Shown one piece after another: positions 10,586 to 15,866 of a stretch of DNA of 16,742 nucleotides. Below the pieces are notes generated by a model. The model saw only the letters and a list, made by a program, of their open reading frames with translations, was not told the origin of the DNA and did no database searches. Position 1 is the first letter of the stretch; the number at the start of each line of letters is the position of its first letter. The stretch is from a virus. The stretch is taken from the UHGV virus genome UHGV-0281303; one strand, given 5' to 3'. The position numbers were made by a program, and so were the translations under genes.

Positions 10586-11935
10586 ATGGCTACGTGGCAA
10601 CAGGGTATTAATTCTGGTGGTTTTCTGGCTGGCATTGGTGCGCAAAATGAGAATGCGCCAAAGGCAAGCGACATTAACGCAACGCTTGGTCTGATTCGCG
10701 AAAACAATGAACTGGCTCGATCAGGTGCAAATAACGTTGGTCTGACCGCGTTACGTGGTCTGGCTGGAGTTGCTGATATTTATAAGCAGGAACAGCAACA
10801 GAAAGCTATTAGTGCGTTCAATAAGGTTCACGCTGATGCATGGGCTTCTGGTGATCCATCGGGACTATTTAAGTTTGCCCAGGAAAATCCAGCGTTTGTT
10901 GCACAGGCACAACAGGCGTTTTCCGGTCTTAATGATCAGCAACGCAACGATATGGGCGATTTAGCCATGAGGGCTAACGTCGCTCTTTCTCAGGGACCGG
11001 AAGCCTACAGTAAATTCATTACTGACAACAAGGACAGGTTAAATCGCGTTGGTGCTAATGCTGACTGGATGATTCAGACAGGTATCCAGAATCCAGAGCA
11101 GCTATCACACATGCTGACTACTATGTCTCTCGGTGCGCTTGGACCAGAAAAGGCGTTTGCTGTTCAGGATAAGATGGTTGGTCGCCAGCAGGAGCAGCAA
11201 AGAATTAACGAAACCATTCGCAATAATGACATGACGAATGCGAGGGCTATTAGGGGGCAGGATCTTTCCTATAAGGCTCAAATGGCAAGACTGAATCACG
11301 ACAAGTATGTGTTTAAGCAGTCACAGGCGGCCCTTGAAAGAGCAGGACAACTTCAGGATATGGATGTTTTGTCTCTTAACTCACAGATAGCAGCGACGGG
11401 AATTGATCCGCTAACCGGTAAAGCTGCAACGTCAGCCAGAATGTCTCAGGCTAAGAGATGGCTTGATGGCAACAATAATTACAACAATGCGTTGATTACT
11501 GGTGAGCGAGGGATAGAGAAAATTGATTCTTTGCTTGGTAAGAAGGAGCTTGAAGGTATCGGTCGCTTCGAAGGAAGAAATATAGATGGCTTCACAAGTG
11601 CTGAAGGGCTTGCAAACCGTAATGCGATAGAAGAATTAAAGTCGGGTGCGTTTGTCCAGAACGTGCAGACTATGCGAGGTATGGGTAGCCTCTCCAATGC
11701 TGAAGGCCAAAAACTGGAAAACCTGATCGCGAAACTCGATATAACACAGCCTGAAGAGGTCGTCAGAAAACAGTTATCTGAAATACGATCTCAATATTCT
11801 GTATTTCAAAAGGTTGCAGCAAGGGAGGCTGAATCAATGGGATATAGTTCATCAGGTTATGACACATATGTTAGTGAGCGAAAATCAGGAAGCGACAGCA
11901 ATAAGTCCGGTTTCTCGTCTTTATGGGGTGATTAA
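10586..11935 (+). CDS. ejection (E) protein, P22 gp20-like
   Basis: 449 aa in the gene 20 position. AAGGGG ribosome-binding site upstream. The 3' third of the gene is noticeably more AT-rich than the 5' part. Confidence 0.7.
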
Positions 11936-14103
11936 TGGCTAAGGCATGGAAAGATGTTATCGCTTCTCCACAGTATCAGGCGTTAACTGAAGAACAGAAA
12001 GCACAGGCTCAAGCGCAATATTTTGATGAGGTTGTTGCCCCTAAGGCTGGTGACAAATGGGCTGAAGCAAGAGATCAGTTTTATGCAGCATACCCTCCGC
12101 CTCAGCAGCAGAAAGAAGAACCATCATTGATGCAACAAGCTGGTGATTGGCTCACAGGTGGTCAAAGTGCAGGGCAAATTGCAGAACAGGCTGGTCGTGG
12201 TCTGGTAAACATACCATTTGACGTATTGCAGGGTGGCGCAAGTCTGATTAATGCAATCAGCCAGGGGCTTGGCGGCCCCAAGGTTTTGGATGATGTTTAT
12301 CGCCCCGTCGATCGACCGACAGACCCTTACGCGCAAGCCGGTGAAACAATTGGTGGGTATCTCCTGCCAATTGGCACAGCGGCAAAAGCTGCTGGATCGC
12401 CAGCAAAGCTCGCTGAAGATATCGGTTCCGCAGGAAACATGATTGCAGGTTCTCTTGCTGATGCTGCAAATCAGGAGGGCGACTTTGCACAAAATGCTGC
12501 CATTAACGGTGGTATCAATATTGGTGCTCAGGGGATACTTTCTGGCGCTGGAAGGATCTTAACATCTAAATCACCTCAAGTTCTTGGTGGCGGGGCAATA
12601 AATTCCGCTGCTGATGTTTCGAAAATGGCAAAGTCTGGTACAGGAAGAGAGATTATTGCCAGACAGTCAGCTAATGTGTCAGACGAAATAGCAAAAGCAG
12701 CAGATACTGCTGGAATAGATATCAACGCATTAACTCCTGGCATGAGATCAGGTAGTCGTGGTCTTGCTCAGGCGGAGGGGATTCTGGCGTCAAAGCCCGG
12801 AATTACACAGGATGCACACACCAAAGCATTCAGTGAAATAGAGTCGAAATTTAACTCAGCATTGGATGAGTTTGGGGCTGAAGCAGGAACTGCATCAGAA
12901 AAAAGTGCAGCCATAAAACAAAGGGTTTTGGCAAGTATTGATAAAATGAAAAATTCAGAAAAGGCCGCATGGGATAGCGTCCGCTCCACGATGCCTGACG
13001 CAAAGGCCAGAATGTCAAACCTGAACGCTACAATTCAGGGTGATATTTTGGCTGGCATGCCGCTAACTCCTGAGATGAAACAATTCGCATCTGCTTATGC
13101 TAAAACTGGTAAAAAAGGAATCACGTTTGATGCCATGAAGGCATGGCGAAGTAAACTTGCTGACGCAGAGCAGAAGTATATAAGGTCTGGTGAGGCAAAT
13201 ACGGCAAGGCGCATGGCTGAGCTTCGTGATGCAGCAACGGAAGATATGCGCATAATGGCTCAAAATGGCGGTTTTCTTGATGACTGGCAAAAAGCTAATG
13301 ATCTGTCAAAGGCAAGATTTACAGCACAAGAACAGGCTGAAGCGGCGTTTGGTAGAGACCTTGCAACTGATCAGTTGGTAACTAATGGCTCTAAGGCGTT
13401 ACAGGGTTCAGCAAAAAGTGGAACAGGTCAGTTCCATAAAATAATAAGTGCCCTACCTGAGTCAGAACGCGCGCCAGCAATTGCATCAATATTACAAGAT
13501 GCAATGTCGCAAGGGGTACGCGGAGGTAAGTCTGAAGAGGCTGGAATTAAGCATATCGCGACTATTCTTACCCCACAAAACGTGAAGGCAATTAGTCGAT
13601 ATTCTCCAGAACTTGGCAGGATTACAAGTTCATACGGAGAACTTGCACGAGCAGCAACAAAGCCACTTCGATATGTTGAACAGACAGGGCGATCTATGCC
13701 AGCCATTAGCACTCTTGAGAATGGCCTTCATCCAGTTTTAGAGAGCGCATTGTCTGGCGCTTTTAGAACTACTGGCACTATCGCAGGGTTCTCTGGAGGA
13801 GGCGTTATTGGAGCAATAGCGGGTGGCGCTGCAGGTGGGGCAATTGATGCAATGGCAAAAGGAGCGATAGCGAAATTATCCGCAACTAGAAGCGGTCGTT
13901 ACGCTATTGAAAAGGCTGTTCAAGAGGCAACAAAGGCAGTTAAGGTTGGGGCAAGTGATGGCGCATTAGCGGCGGCGGAACGCAGATTTATGGCAAATAA
14001 GGCCGCCGTAAAAGCAATACGCGAGGCACTAGGAAACGAAGAGTTCCAGCGTTTAGCAAGAGCTGGAATTGTGGCATCGCTAAGCGGAATGGCACAGGAG
14101 TAA
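11935..14103 (+). CDS. ejection (E) protein, P22 gp16-like (extended, 722 aa)
   Basis: Last gene of the late train, start overlapping the upstream stop. Gly/Ala-rich hydrophobic segment near the C-terminus ([29 protein letters not shown]), compatible with a membrane-active ejection protein. Longer than P22 gp16 (about 609 aa). Confidence 0.7.
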
Positions 14104-14487
14104 TTAGTCATCCATGGATGGATTGAGCTTATCTCGTGTTGATGTGGCAATTTTCCCAACATTTTTCAACCAAGATTTTAAGAAGGATATGTCGTCCTTA
14201 ATATCATGAATATCCTCATTCTTTATACGATCAACCTTATCCTCTAAGCTCTCTATAGAACGCTCAATGCTAGACAGAGAGATTTTTAAGTCCCCTTGCT
14301 CACGTTCCAGTGAGGATTTGAGAGCATAATATTCGTTTTCTAGAATTCCTATTTTTTTTGTTAGAGAGTGCATTCGATACTCATACACCAAACCAGAAAC
14401 GACTAATGCAGCCAACAGAAACCATTCAAGCACACCAACCTCCTTAGTTTTGAGCAGGATACCAGATGATGTATGGAGAGGCATCAT
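14104..14487 (-). CDS. small membrane protein with N-terminal TM helix and C-terminal coiled coil (sieA-position cargo gene)
   Basis: 127-codon ORF in AT-rich DNA, where long ORFs are unlikely by chance. Hydrophobic segment VLEWFLLAALVVSGLVYEY, then a heptad-like charged region (LENEYYALKSSLEREQGDLKISLSSIERSIESLEDKVDRIKNE). No obvious Shine-Dalgarno before the ATG, so the start is uncertain. Its stop abuts the gp16-like stop with zero spacer (TAA/TTA at 14101-14106). Confidence 0.55.
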   Translation of the reverse strand: MMPLHTSSGILLKTKEVGVLEWFLLAALVVSGLVYEYRMHSLTKKIGILENEYYALKSSLEREQGDLKISLSSIERSIESLEDKVDRIKNEDIHDIKDDISFLKSWLKNVGKIATSTRDKLNPSMDD

Positions 14488-14508
14488 CTACTGGTGATAG
14501 AACGATGG

Positions 14509-14537
14509 TTGCATAATGATATCACGTGACGTAGAAT
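14509..14537 (+). promoter_or_regulatory. candidate sigma70 promoter for the two-gene cassette, with overlapping palindromes in the spacer
   Basis: -35 TTGCAT (14509-14514), 17-bp spacer, -10 TAGAAT (14532-14537). The spacer holds palindromes TGATATCA (14517-14524) and TCACGTGA (14522-14529). Predicted start site is about 60 nt upstream of the ATG at 14606. Confidence 0.4.
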
Positions 14538-14605
14538 TACTGCGCATAGCGTGTATTCAATGGATGCATAGCTATTGATAATCTCCGATAAGAAAGGAGG
14601 TTTGT

Positions 14606-15172
14606 ATGAGCAATGAGACTAATGGGATTGATGAAATGTTTAGCTTGAACGCTGCCAAAGCTGGAGTCGCAATAGGTTTGCTATTACAGCAAGCTTCTGC
14701 GTTCAGTTGTGAGGTGGTTGTTACTGATAACGTTCAGCACGCTTACCATCAATCCTCATTCAGCAGTGAACAGGCTAATGATGAGCTTCATGAGGCGGTG
14801 TCTTCGATTAAAGAATTGTCTCGAATGCTGAAATACGCTTATCGTGTTCTTGCAAACGCTACCGATGAGAATGTAGACAATGTGTTGTCTATCATTGAAC
14901 CAGAAAAGTCTCGATTGATAGAGCATCAATTGAGAGGACTTGAAGGGGCAATGAAATCGGTATTCAAAGAAGCTTCTGCTGATTTTAAAGAGATCGCAAG
15001 AGATATCTATATCGTTGTTGCTGATGCTAGATCTGCCGTAACTAACCTGAATAGTCTTATTAAACAACGCTCATGTGTTCCGGTTGTTTTTGATAGTTCC
15101 GTAGATATGGCTGGTTTGCGTGCGCTTGCTGAGCACGGGACTCGTGTGTTTCACTCTGGTAACTTCCACTGA
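14606..15172 (+). CDS. hypothetical protein (188 aa), upstream partner of the YafO-like toxin; candidate antitoxin/immunity component of unknown family
   Basis: Strong ribosome-binding site AAGGAGG 5 nt upstream of the ATG. Stop codon TGA overlaps the Shine-Dalgarno (GAGG) of the downstream gene, with an 8-nt gap. Acidic, predicted mostly helical, no DNA-binding or TM motif that I recognise. Confidence 0.75.
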   Translation: MSNETNGIDEMFSLNAAKAGVAIGLLLQQASAFSCEVVVTDNVQHAYHQSSFSSEQANDELHEAVSSIKELSRMLKYAYRVLANATDENVDNVLSIIEPEKSRLIEHQLRGLEGAMKSVFKEASADFKEIARDIYIVVADARSAVTNLNSLIKQRSCVPVVFDSSVDMAGLRALAEHGTRVFHSGNFH

Positions 15173-15180
15173 GGTAAAAC

Positions 15181-15630
15181 ATGCAAGTAACCGTGGAATA
15201 TAATCAGGATAGTTTTGACTATTTTTTCTCCCCGGTTTTTGTTGAGTTTCCTGATTTAAAACAAACACTTGTAGATGATTTTATCATCTACAAGTCTACG
15301 GGAACGTTGCCCAGCTATTTTGGCAGAGACACCTCTTATCATCGGCCTCCTGATATTGAAGATGCAGGTCTTATGCACCTTCATTTAGCAATTGGTGAAA
15401 ATAAATTTGAGCCAATAAAAAATGGCACAGATATCAGCACACCGCAAAAGTTGCAGTGGCATAAAACATCCAATACCGCTCTCGTTTATGCACAAAATCT
15501 TTTTGATGAGAACAGGTATTCATTGATTGCTCTTTTTCATCCAGTAGCTCACATGTCTGCTAACAATCATAATAGAATGAGAGTGTTAGCAGGGTATGCG
15601 AGAGACTTTAGAAACACTATGTTTGACTAA
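15181..15630 (+). CDS. YafO-family toxin-like protein (ribosome-dependent mRNA interferase family)
   Basis: 149 aa. Motifs DFIIYKSTGTLPSYFGRD, HLHLA, ALVYAQNLFDENRYSLIALF and NNHNRM...FR align by eye with E. coli YafO as I recall it (DFISYKRDGVLPDTFGRD, HIHLA, HLVYCQGAFDEQAWLLIAIL, NNQMH...FR). Followed by an intrinsic terminator. Confidence 0.8.
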   Translation: MQVTVEYNQDSFDYFFSPVFVEFPDLKQTLVDDFIIYKSTGTLPSYFGRDTSYHRPPDIEDAGLMHLHLAIGENKFEPIKNGTDISTPQKLQWHKTSNTALVYAQNLFDENRYSLIALFHPVAHMSANNHNRMRVLAGYARDFRNTMFD

Positions 15631-15656
15631 ACCCACCGTCAGGTGGGTTTTTTTAT
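15630..15656 (+). terminator. rho-independent terminator after the toxin gene
   Basis: Stem ACCCACC (15631-15637), loop GTCA, GGTGGGT (15642-15648), then a T-run to 15654. Starts immediately after the stop codon at 15628-15630. Confidence 0.75.
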
Positions 15657-15686
15657 CTTCTCTACTTTAAAGATTAAGGAAATACC

Positions 15687-15866
15687 ATGACCATAGAAGA
15701 ACGTGTGGAAAACCTTGAACGCACCATCAAAGTGATGAAGTGCCATCTTGGAGAACTTCATCTTGAATCACTGAAGCATCAAGCAGAAGAGCTTGAGAAA
15801 TCAGCAAAATCAATGCGCAGTCGTTACGATTCGACTCTGGAGGCTATTAAAAACGGTAGCTATTGA
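15687..15866 (+). CDS. small hypothetical coiled-coil protein (59 aa)
   Basis: ATG at 15687 with AAGGA 7 nt upstream; charged helical sequence (MTIEERVENLERTIKVMK...). Not in the ORF track, presumably because it is under the length cut-off. Its 3' end overlaps the 3' end of the convergent minus-strand ORF by 20 nt, so one of the two may be spurious. Confidence 0.35.
   Translation: MTIEERVENLERTIKVMKCHLGELHLESLKHQAEELEKSAKSMRSRYDSTLEAIKNGSY

Follow-up and report, generated by a model that had tools for sequence, protein, structure and literature searches.

Among P22-like phages only one block to DNA entry is understood, that imposed by SieA, an inner-membrane exclusion protein whose gene lies beside gene 16. 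Eighty-five base pairs (bp) upstream of P22 sieA are enough for expression, with which one copy excludes by a factor of at least 10^7; the protein carries a conserved motif, FxRYPxEAxxFNK, that is predicted to be cytoplasmic; mutations that escape it map to the C-terminal regions of gp16 and gp20; the gene is reported to be up-regulated during induction; and how SieA recognises very divergent ejection proteins is an open question (PMC10883804). The gene 16 product, gp16, forms a density spanning the cytoplasmic membrane (bioRxiv 10.64898/2026.09.03.749273), and the variable region to the right of its gene has been named the 'ant moron' by Villafane et al. (PMC2629481). Here, we describe the gene hkcB in UHGV virus genome UHGV-0281303, a stretch of 16,742 nucleotides (nt) that was analysed at its full length and is referred to below as the window. 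hkcB is a moron gene of P22-like (Lederbergvirus) prophages which, judged by its sequence and setting, appears to be a non-homologous allele of sieA under the same expression signals, and its product, HkcB, is by analogy with SieA a good candidate for a new kind of phage-exclusion protein.

Our main new result is a leader that hkcB shares with sieA. The window hkcB is preceded by TGGTATCCTG-CTC-AAAACTAAGGAGGTTGGT-GTG, which is identical to the leader of P22 sieA, and the two open reading frames (ORFs) diverge at the first base after the GTG. The same leader, of the general form TGGTATCCTG-NNN-AAAACTAAGGAGGTTGGT-GTG, is identical in P22 sieA, HK620 hkcB, epsilon34 gp14 and a 62-amino-acid (62-aa) cassette of E. 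coli, and was found in at least 116 distinct instances among the IMG/VR matches listed and in 69 phage records. Cassette and instance counts from this leader scan are lower bounds; the tally of leaders and upstream modules is deduplicated, and the locus counts for cassette types, junctions and co-occurrence include some contigs twice. In HK620, the 170 nt upstream of hkcB are nearly identical to the P22 region, and in E. coli genomes homology to the module that stands upstream of hkcB in the window (a 188-aa ORF followed by a YafO-family toxin gene) begins exactly at position 14431, the last base of the GTG.

A preliminary description of the window, made from the sequence alone, had placed this ORF in the slot held by sieA in P22 and judged it unrelated to SieA, and both statements are upheld. 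P22 sieA does have this position and orientation, and hkcB matches the location of the SieA family in its place between gene 16 and gene 9, its convergence with the former and its setting behind the PsieA leader; it starts at the same GTG behind the same 33–40-nt leader and ends at the gene-16 stop. BLASTP against P22 SieA gives an expect value (E) of 0.66 over 7 residues, and there is no match to phrog_7745 at E <= 0.1, the comparison being with P22 SieA and not with types B and C. SieA and HkcB occur together in 0 loci among those retrieved. Because the two genes have the same start and the same end at gene 16, do not co-occur and show no similarity, we regard hkcB as a non-homologous, ORF-for-ORF replacement of sieA.

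The gene had been catalogued before, which the preliminary description missed: the window ORF is hkcB of coliphage HK620 (AAK28903.1; named in 2001), with 97.5% amino acid identity, and its counterpart in epsilon34 is gp14. Literature that names hkcB gives its function as unknown, and epsilon34 gp14, the SEN22 ORF and CUS-3 HkcB, which are 48–55% identical to the window protein, are all, like the HK620 protein, annotated as hypothetical. The earlier reading of a 127-aa product from a minus-strand ORF at 14104–14487 was correct in that the ORF exists, but its length was over-extended, the true protein having 109 residues counted from the GTG. The phrog_5962 profile (109 positions) aligns from 1 to 109 with residues 19–127 of the long ORF (E = 1.1e-60), HK620 hkcB is annotated at 109 aa, and across 62 aligned homologous loci AAGGAGG-TTGGT-GTG is conserved; in the same loci, the frame 5' of KTKEVGV varies and a conserved ATG or ATG-ATG is absent. 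On the strength of the profile span, the HK620 annotation and the conserved Shine-Dalgarno sequence and GTG, the real coding sequence is that given in Table 1. The window protein has tyrosine at position 36, where most copies have cysteine. The loci of HK620, epsilon34, SEN22 and CUS-3 resemble that of the window in position, orientation and stop-to-stop junction with gene 16; HK620 carries hkcC upstream, whereas the window has the 188-aa ORF and the YafO-family toxin gene instead.

The family is small and confined to one setting. It comprises 26 clusters at 90% identity, with E. coli, Salmonella and Klebsiella aerogenes as hosts, and hkcB is present in 82 of 5,426 complete E. coli genomes (~1.5%). 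An exhaustive hidden Markov model search of 1.84 billion representative proteins found ~7 relatives (representative clusters), none of them outside P22-like prophage contexts; matches beyond about E = 1e-5 were long coiled-coil proteins and were rejected as relatives. Among species-representative genomes there was no match to the HkcB protein patterns or to the leader pattern. Scans of Pfam, NCBIfam and PADLOC returned only sub-threshold coiled-coil noise (Rx_N, FlaC, bZIP, ASRP, DpdH), including a DpdH match (PADLOC 2.0; E = 0.0033, 15.6 bits, without a significant stretch) that we discount as such. A confident match to an unrelated characterised family, which the preliminary description had said would count against its proposal, was thus found in none of Pfam, NCBIfam, PADLOC and the PDB.

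HkcB is predicted to be a membrane-anchored coiled-coil protein. Its sole strongly hydrophobic segment is N-terminal (Kyte-Doolittle score 2.16 over 15 residues, against a maximum of 0.49 elsewhere), so that the single transmembrane (TM) helix proposed earlier is borne out by hydropathy prediction, at residues 2–19. The coiled coil proposed with it is recognisable as a heptad pattern, with 3–4 hydrophobic spacing in residues 24–70 that resumes at 75–96 and with hydrophobic residues at 10 of 14 a/d positions in residues 23–72 and 7 of 9 in residues 73–104; its acidity is mild (isoelectric point, pI, 5.2; net charge about −2 in the soluble part). An AlphaFold2 model built from a five-sequence alignment has helices at residues 2–72 and 75–103, with a predicted local distance difference test score (pLDDT) of 73 and a predicted template modelling score (pTM) of 0.32. 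Foldseek found no match to this model in the PDB, a comparison of folds that is uninformative for a single extended helix, and the family profile matched only GCN4, keratin and designed coiled coils among PDB sequences (E >= 0.019). What the preliminary description overlooked is the distribution of charge: in all four HkcB subfamilies there is no lysine or arginine before the anchor and there are at least two within ~12 residues after it (R20, K26 and K27 in the window protein). Under the positive-inside rule, these charges predict that the N-terminus lies outside and that the coiled coil and the conserved tail are cytoplasmic (N-out/C-in).

It is the C-terminal part of the protein that is most strongly kept. 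The last 40 residues are near-invariant (RIKNEDIHDIKDDISFLKSWLKNVGKIATSTRDKLNPSMDD), with 19 invariant columns across subfamilies that are ~50% identical overall; the N-terminal anchor and the C-terminal motif W-x-x-N-V-G-x-I-A-T-S, which together mark the family, are both present in the window protein, and the W-x-x-N-V-G core is retained in two relatives of ~30% identity, P0030 and P0032, whose DNA is unrelated. Between the window and epsilon34, the C-terminal 41 codons have a non-synonymous divergence (dN) of 0.15 and a synonymous divergence (dS) of 1.17 (dN/dS ~0.13), and the 66 aligned N-terminal codons a dN of 0.64 with dS saturated (~2.6). HkcB is therefore under purifying selection at the protein level, strongest in the C-terminal 41 codons, and the combination of a dN of 0.15 with a dS of 1.17 shows that this conservation reflects functional constraint and not a recent recombination patch. 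Mimicry of the ejection proteins was considered and rejected: BLASTP against all window proteins gave nothing significant, the best match being the coiled coil of gp26 (E = 0.09), and a resemblance of GKIATSTR to gp20 residues 278–285 (6 of 8 identical) has E = 8.7. Chimeric and truncated variants also occur (P0022 and P0023, from metagenome contigs, P0024 and P0031); in two of them the conserved C-terminal 40 residues follow an unrelated N-terminus that lacks the membrane anchor, and others are frameshifted 3' of the coiled coil, which suggests decay or domain shuffling in some prophages.

SieA and HkcB can now be compared directly. The two genes have their locus, orientation and leader in common, down to the Shine-Dalgarno sequence and the GTG. 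Their products are small membrane proteins, each with its strongest conservation in a C-terminal part for which a cytoplasmic location is predicted. In build they differ, the SieA family being marked by three or four TM segments and P22 SieA having three hydrophobic segments, a basic pI of 9.6 and no coiled coil, whereas HkcB has one anchor with a coiled coil and is acidic; the SieA motif FxRYPxEAxxFNK is absent from the HkcB sequence. SieA accompanies the ...NEATRQ type of gp16 across a 22-nt spacer and HkcB another gp16 type with no spacer. The exclusion phenotype that marks the SieA family, a block to DNA injection by P22-like phages with adsorption unaffected, has been shown for SieA only.

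A second likeness is to HK97 gp15, which Cumby et al. in 2012 (as cited in PMC10883804) are said to have presented as a moron-encoded inner-membrane exclusion protein. Its target reportedly involves the tape-measure protein and PtsG. Like the HkcB proposed here, gp15 is a small prophage membrane protein encoded by a moron within a virion-structure cluster, and it reportedly blocks entry of DNA of its own phage type; unlike HkcB, it belongs to a siphovirus, and the two are not known to be related in sequence.

A role in which HkcB mimics bitopic coiled-coil proteins and acts in lysis or division is scarcely probable at all. The lambda Rz i-spanin, FtsB/DivIC and ZapG (YhcB) are each anchored in the membrane at the N-terminus and continue as a long heptad-repeat helix, and HkcB is similarly built, with an N-terminal TM segment and two heptad-repeat helices; a sister cassette behind the same leader (MLEIVV, 109 aa) has a weak DivIC match (E = 0.0037). 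Yet HkcB itself has no Pfam match at E <= 0.1 to FtsB/DivIC (PF04977), nor does it match spanin families there, and lacking N-terminal positive charge it has a predicted orientation opposite to that of Rz and FtsB. Its context is also unrelated to lysis or division: hkcB stands between gene 16 and the mnt/arc region, outside the lysis cassette, with no embedded or adjacent lipoprotein ORF that could serve as o-spanin partner.

The junction with gene 16 had been described as two abutting stops, TAATTA, with zero spacer, next to a gp16-like gene and with no room for terminators, and each element of that description stands. The neighbour is the P22 gene-16 homologue (722 aa; phrog_770, E = 1e-219); its TAA occupies 14101–14103, and the hkcB stop is the plus-strand TTA at 14104–14106. 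The preliminary description had also proposed looking for the gene at the same locus in related prophages, where the spacer proves to be zero in 65 of 70 hkcB locus records, HK620, epsilon34 and CUS-3 likewise; in the distant homologues P0030 and P0032 it is 3 nt and 4 nt, respectively. No intrinsic terminator or significant hairpin follows the hkcB stop (folding z-score 0.28), the only terminator candidates, weak ones, stand more than 650 nt into gene 16, and Rfam has no match for the junction or hkcB region. With no terminator, transcripts of hkcB would therefore run antisense into gene 16, and late transcripts antisense through hkcB. A perfect 12-nt palindrome, CATCCATGGATG, lies just after the gene-16 stop at 14111–14122, within the codons for the conserved NPSMDD tail; it is not followed by a T-run and is for that reason no terminator.

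All four HkcB subfamilies, down to ~30% identity (HK620 type, epsilon34 type, P0030 and P0032), abut a single C-terminal type of gp16, just as sieA is always joined to the ...RPLLANEATRQ type with its 22-nt spacer. The association runs one way, hkcB implying that gp16 type but not the reverse, since the same type also occurs without hkcB: in Bas106 and Dewey there is no moron, and elsewhere other cassettes take the place. gp16 is itself a mosaic. Between the window (11935–14103) and E. coli 19SZHZ803Rt (L194, 1432–3297) the first ~140 residues are identical and the rest is unrelated (722 against 621 aa in total), having been swapped together with the following cassette; the unit of exchange thus appears to be the gp16 body plus the cassette.

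hkcB and sieA are two of many genes behind this leader. Among IMG/VR leader loci, at least 13 unrelated ORF types start at the shared GTG and end 0–45 nt from the gene-16 stop: SieA type A, two HkcB subtypes, a second protein with an N-terminal anchor and coiled coil (phrog_8100), three signal-peptide proteins, two 2-TM peptides, one 4-TM protein, two further single-TM proteins and one soluble protein. A hydrophobic segment is present in 12 of the 13 types, and SieA is the only one with a characterised function, namely inner-membrane exclusion. HkcB is the cassette most often met in the loci retrieved. There is one leader cassette per locus, except that a 99-aa signal-peptide protein stands beside another cassette in five loci, and upstream modules and cassettes combine in many ways; in strain 19SZHZ803Rt, for example, homology to the upstream module continues into a different ORF, of 62 aa and two TM segments, and a different gp16 body. 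Profile comparison of HkcB with the MLEIVV sister cassette gave a probability of 11%, and the two are not demonstrably homologous. Several short leader cassettes are without annotation by the Prokaryotic Genome Annotation Pipeline (PGAP), among them the 62-aa two-TM ORF MKKKFVNVAKC... (L194, 3315–3503), and at such loci the annotation is blank from gene 16 up to the next gene called.

The leader also bears on when hkcB would be expressed. A candidate extended −10 element, TGGTATCCT, together with a T before GGTATCCT, is kept in all leader instances counted above; it lies behind at least eight unrelated upstream modules, with poor −35 matches, and its loss is confined to loci in which co-directional genes precede hkcB, such as those of CUS-3-type phages (mnt-mnt-ORF-ORF-hkcB), in which hkcB is the distal gene of the mnt operon with no terminator between. 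In one distant homologue (at L191), hkcB begins 36 nt after mnt, again with no terminator between. mnt is a lysogeny-maintenance gene. From the leader promoter, the mnt operon arrangements and an orientation against the late operon, hkcB would be transcribed in the lysogen; given its convergence with that operon, the gene is not built for expression late in the lytic cycle. A scan for consensus sigma-70 sites upstream of hkcB found no minus-strand promoter.

Within the otherwise frozen leader, one trinucleotide is hypervariable, with nine alleles (CTC, CGC, CAC, AGC, CGA, CGT, CTA, TTC and TGA) in the window and loci L001–L190. The alleles differ within and between cassette types, whichever module stands upstream and whichever cassette downstream, with an entropy of 1.1–1.35 bits against 0.03 at third-codon positions of HK620-type hkcB, and the site might be an old neutral polymorphism between frozen blocks shuffled by recombination or, alternatively, a tuning of the promoter discriminator. 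On the plus strand, the leader's reverse complement, CAGGATACCAGATGATG (14455–14470), has the form of a Shine-Dalgarno sequence and ATG for a divergent gene; this start is used by a real gene in HK620 (hkcC), P22 and epsilon34, and in the window by only a 16-codon remnant ORF. The complement of the divergent Shine-Dalgarno sequence (UCCU), 12 nt upstream of that of hkcB, could pair with the latter. Antisense within hkcB (14318–14346, plus strand) is the region's best match to the sigma-70 consensus (TTGAGA-17-TAGAAT, 10 of 12), which points towards the 188-aa and YafO genes; it could be a face-to-face promoter or chance.

Table 1. Features at the junction of gene 16 and hkcB in the window
Feature	Position	Strand	Basis
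gene 16 homologue, ejection/DNA-transfer protein, 722 aa; its C-terminal type always accompanies hkcB	11935..14103	+	phrog_770
stop-to-stop junction TAATTA, zero spacer; gene 16 TAA / hkcB TAA	14101..14106	.	read from sequence
hkcB coding sequence, 109 aa + stop, GTG start 14433-14431	14104..14433	-	HK620 identity, phrog_5962, 62 loci
conserved C-terminal module, residues 69-109, motif W-x-x-N-V-G-x-I-A-T-S-T-R	14107..14229	-	invariant columns, dN/dS
predicted coiled-coil region, residues 24-96, break at 71-74	14146..14364	-	heptad counts, AlphaFold2 helices
predicted N-terminal hydrophobic membrane anchor, residues 2-19	14377..14430	-	Kyte-Doolittle, flanking charges
false 5' extension of the 127-aa ORF, really 5' leader	14434..14487	-	frame unconserved, without shared ATG
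leader TGGTATCCTG-CTC-AAAACTAAGGAGGTTGGT, common to P22 sieA and no fewer than 11 further types of ORF cassette	14434..14464	-	sequence identity
Shine-Dalgarno AAGGAGG, 5 nt upstream of GTG	14439..14445	-	invariant in alignment
hypervariable trinucleotide in frozen leader, CTC in the window	14452..14454	-	nine alleles
candidate extended −10 TGGTATCCT	14456..14464	-	conservation only
second candidate extended −10 TGATATCAT, in window-specific upstream module	14516..14524	-	read from sequence; unconserved across modules

The reading we favour, held with slightly less than even confidence, is that HkcB may act as a DNA-entry exclusion protein of P22-like prophages. By analogy with SieA, support is lent by the leader common to both genes, by the single cassette per locus and by the fact that the sole characterised cassette encodes an exclusion protein; the restriction of the family to P22-like prophages, its constant gp16 C-terminal type and its purifying selection point, as sequence evidence, the same way. 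What we infer is a 109-residue bitopic protein with predicted N-out/C-in topology, a coiled coil of ~73 residues, probably oligomeric, and a conserved C-terminal helix and tail, which would be made at low level in the lysogen, driven by a promoter of the leader itself or, in some phages, as the terminal gene of an mnt operon. At the inner membrane, HkcB would keep a superinfecting P22-like phage's ejection-protein conduit from carrying DNA transfer to completion, its most probable contact being the C-terminal domain of gp16, proximal to membrane and cytoplasm and of the type that is always joined to hkcB. A wider proposal, which we regard as doubtful, is that the DNA from leader to gene-16 stop is a combinatorial cassette-exchange site, that HkcB founds a new exclusion family and that the pairing of cassette and gp16 type sets specificity. 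In such a scheme, a frozen leader of ~33 nt (extended −10, Shine-Dalgarno sequence and GTG) would drive any of at least 13 mostly envelope-targeted ORFs, each tied to a particular type of gp16 C-terminal domain, and a membrane-tethered cytoplasmic coiled coil would recognise that domain and stop DNA translocation.

Several points weigh against an exclusion function. Sharing a slot means sharing regulation and recombination anchors, not function, and the cassettes other than SieA are without characterised function. A cytoplasmic coiled coil is no obvious blocker of a periplasmic conduit, and the AlphaFold2 model behind its description is of moderate confidence. The association of hkcB with one gp16 type may be mere linkage, because a spacer of zero length leaves no room for recombination. 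With regard to expression, of the P22 PsieA region the window keeps only the proximal 31–35 nt. The annotated promoter of the P22 record sits just upstream of the part kept and is replaced in the window, where expression of hkcB would depend on the putative extended −10, a 4/6 match to consensus with a poor −35.

HkcB might instead be a prophage envelope protein with another benefit, such as abortive infection, defence against unrelated phages or a lysogenic conversion that changes the physiology of the host envelope, and would then leave DNA entry by P22-like phages unblocked; we think this unlikely but worth serious consideration. The slot holds very different envelope proteins (signal-peptide, 2-TM and 4-TM), which need not all exclude, the moron of the window also has a YafO-family toxin pair, and adjacency is the only tie of HkcB to the ejection proteins. 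General cargo, however, would not be expected to be found only in P22-like prophages and always abutting gene 16, even at 30% identity, and there is no match to a PADLOC defence model. The strictness of the association with one gp16 C-terminal type across four subfamilies could instead mean that HkcB serves its own gp16, as a membrane immunity protein or chaperone that keeps newly made or leaked gp16 from harming the inner membrane from inside, or as a helper for that C-terminal type; its predicted cytoplasmic orientation would face newly made gp16, and the reported up-regulation of sieA on induction (PMC10883804) would fit. We consider such a service improbable: hkcB runs antisense to the late operon from which gene 16 is expressed, and the same gp16 type occurs without hkcB (Bas106, Dewey) or with other cassettes, so that hkcB is dispensable for gp16 function.

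Lastly, the coding sequence might be incidental and the role one of DNA or RNA, whether as an antisense RNA or convergent unit that modulates late read-through from gene 16 to the tailspike gene or as a recombination linker. The missing terminator and the mutual antisense transcription of hkcB and the late operon that would follow are in its favour, and in P22 the moron has been suggested to affect expression of the tailspike (PMC2629481). Selection nevertheless acts on the protein, with dN/dS ~0.13–0.25 where dS is saturated or high, the Shine-Dalgarno sequence and GTG are conserved, the amino acid motif is kept in 30%-identical relatives with unrelated DNA, and there is neither an Rfam match nor a stable fold; such a role is very improbable. 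In our literature search nothing was found that links P22-like phages, sieA and a hotspot, the HK620 genome paper, Hofer 1995 and Casjens & Grose 2016 lying outside that search; the shared leader or the replacement of sieA by hkcB may already have been noted in one of these three.

The remainder of the window is in keeping with the late-operon half of a P22-like prophage. Small and large terminase, portal, scaffold and coat genes are followed by homologues of genes 4, 10, 26, 14, 7 and 20 and then by gene 16. The moron has hkcB on the minus strand, the 188-aa ORF and YafO-family toxin gene on the plus strand, a terminator, and three minus-strand ORFs ending with an Arc/Mnt-like repressor. The 188-aa ORF (14606–15172, +; phrog_8416) is followed 8 nt later by the YafO-family type II toxin gene (15181–15630, +; Pfam E = 3e-22) and a strong terminator at 15629–15650. 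At twice the size of YafN, the 188-aa partner matches no antitoxin family; it may be a new antitoxin, or the two genes may be a defence pair among the cargo of the moron. Of the ~370 complete E. coli genomes that a query of 13900–15700 matched, many have the module with ~98% conservation.

hkcB is a gene of 330 bp, and an exclusion assay system exists, based on single-copy galK insertion and E-protein hybrid phages. Should HkcB have no exclusion activity, the slot would be a general envelope-cargo hotspot, useful for prophage annotation given that several of its cassettes are uncalled by PGAP. Should it exclude, HkcB and the other leader ORFs would form a natural panel of unrelated membrane proteins, each linked to a defined gp16 type, which could show where the gp16/gp20 conduit is open to attack at the inner membrane and how exclusion specificity and ejection-protein diversity have co-evolved.

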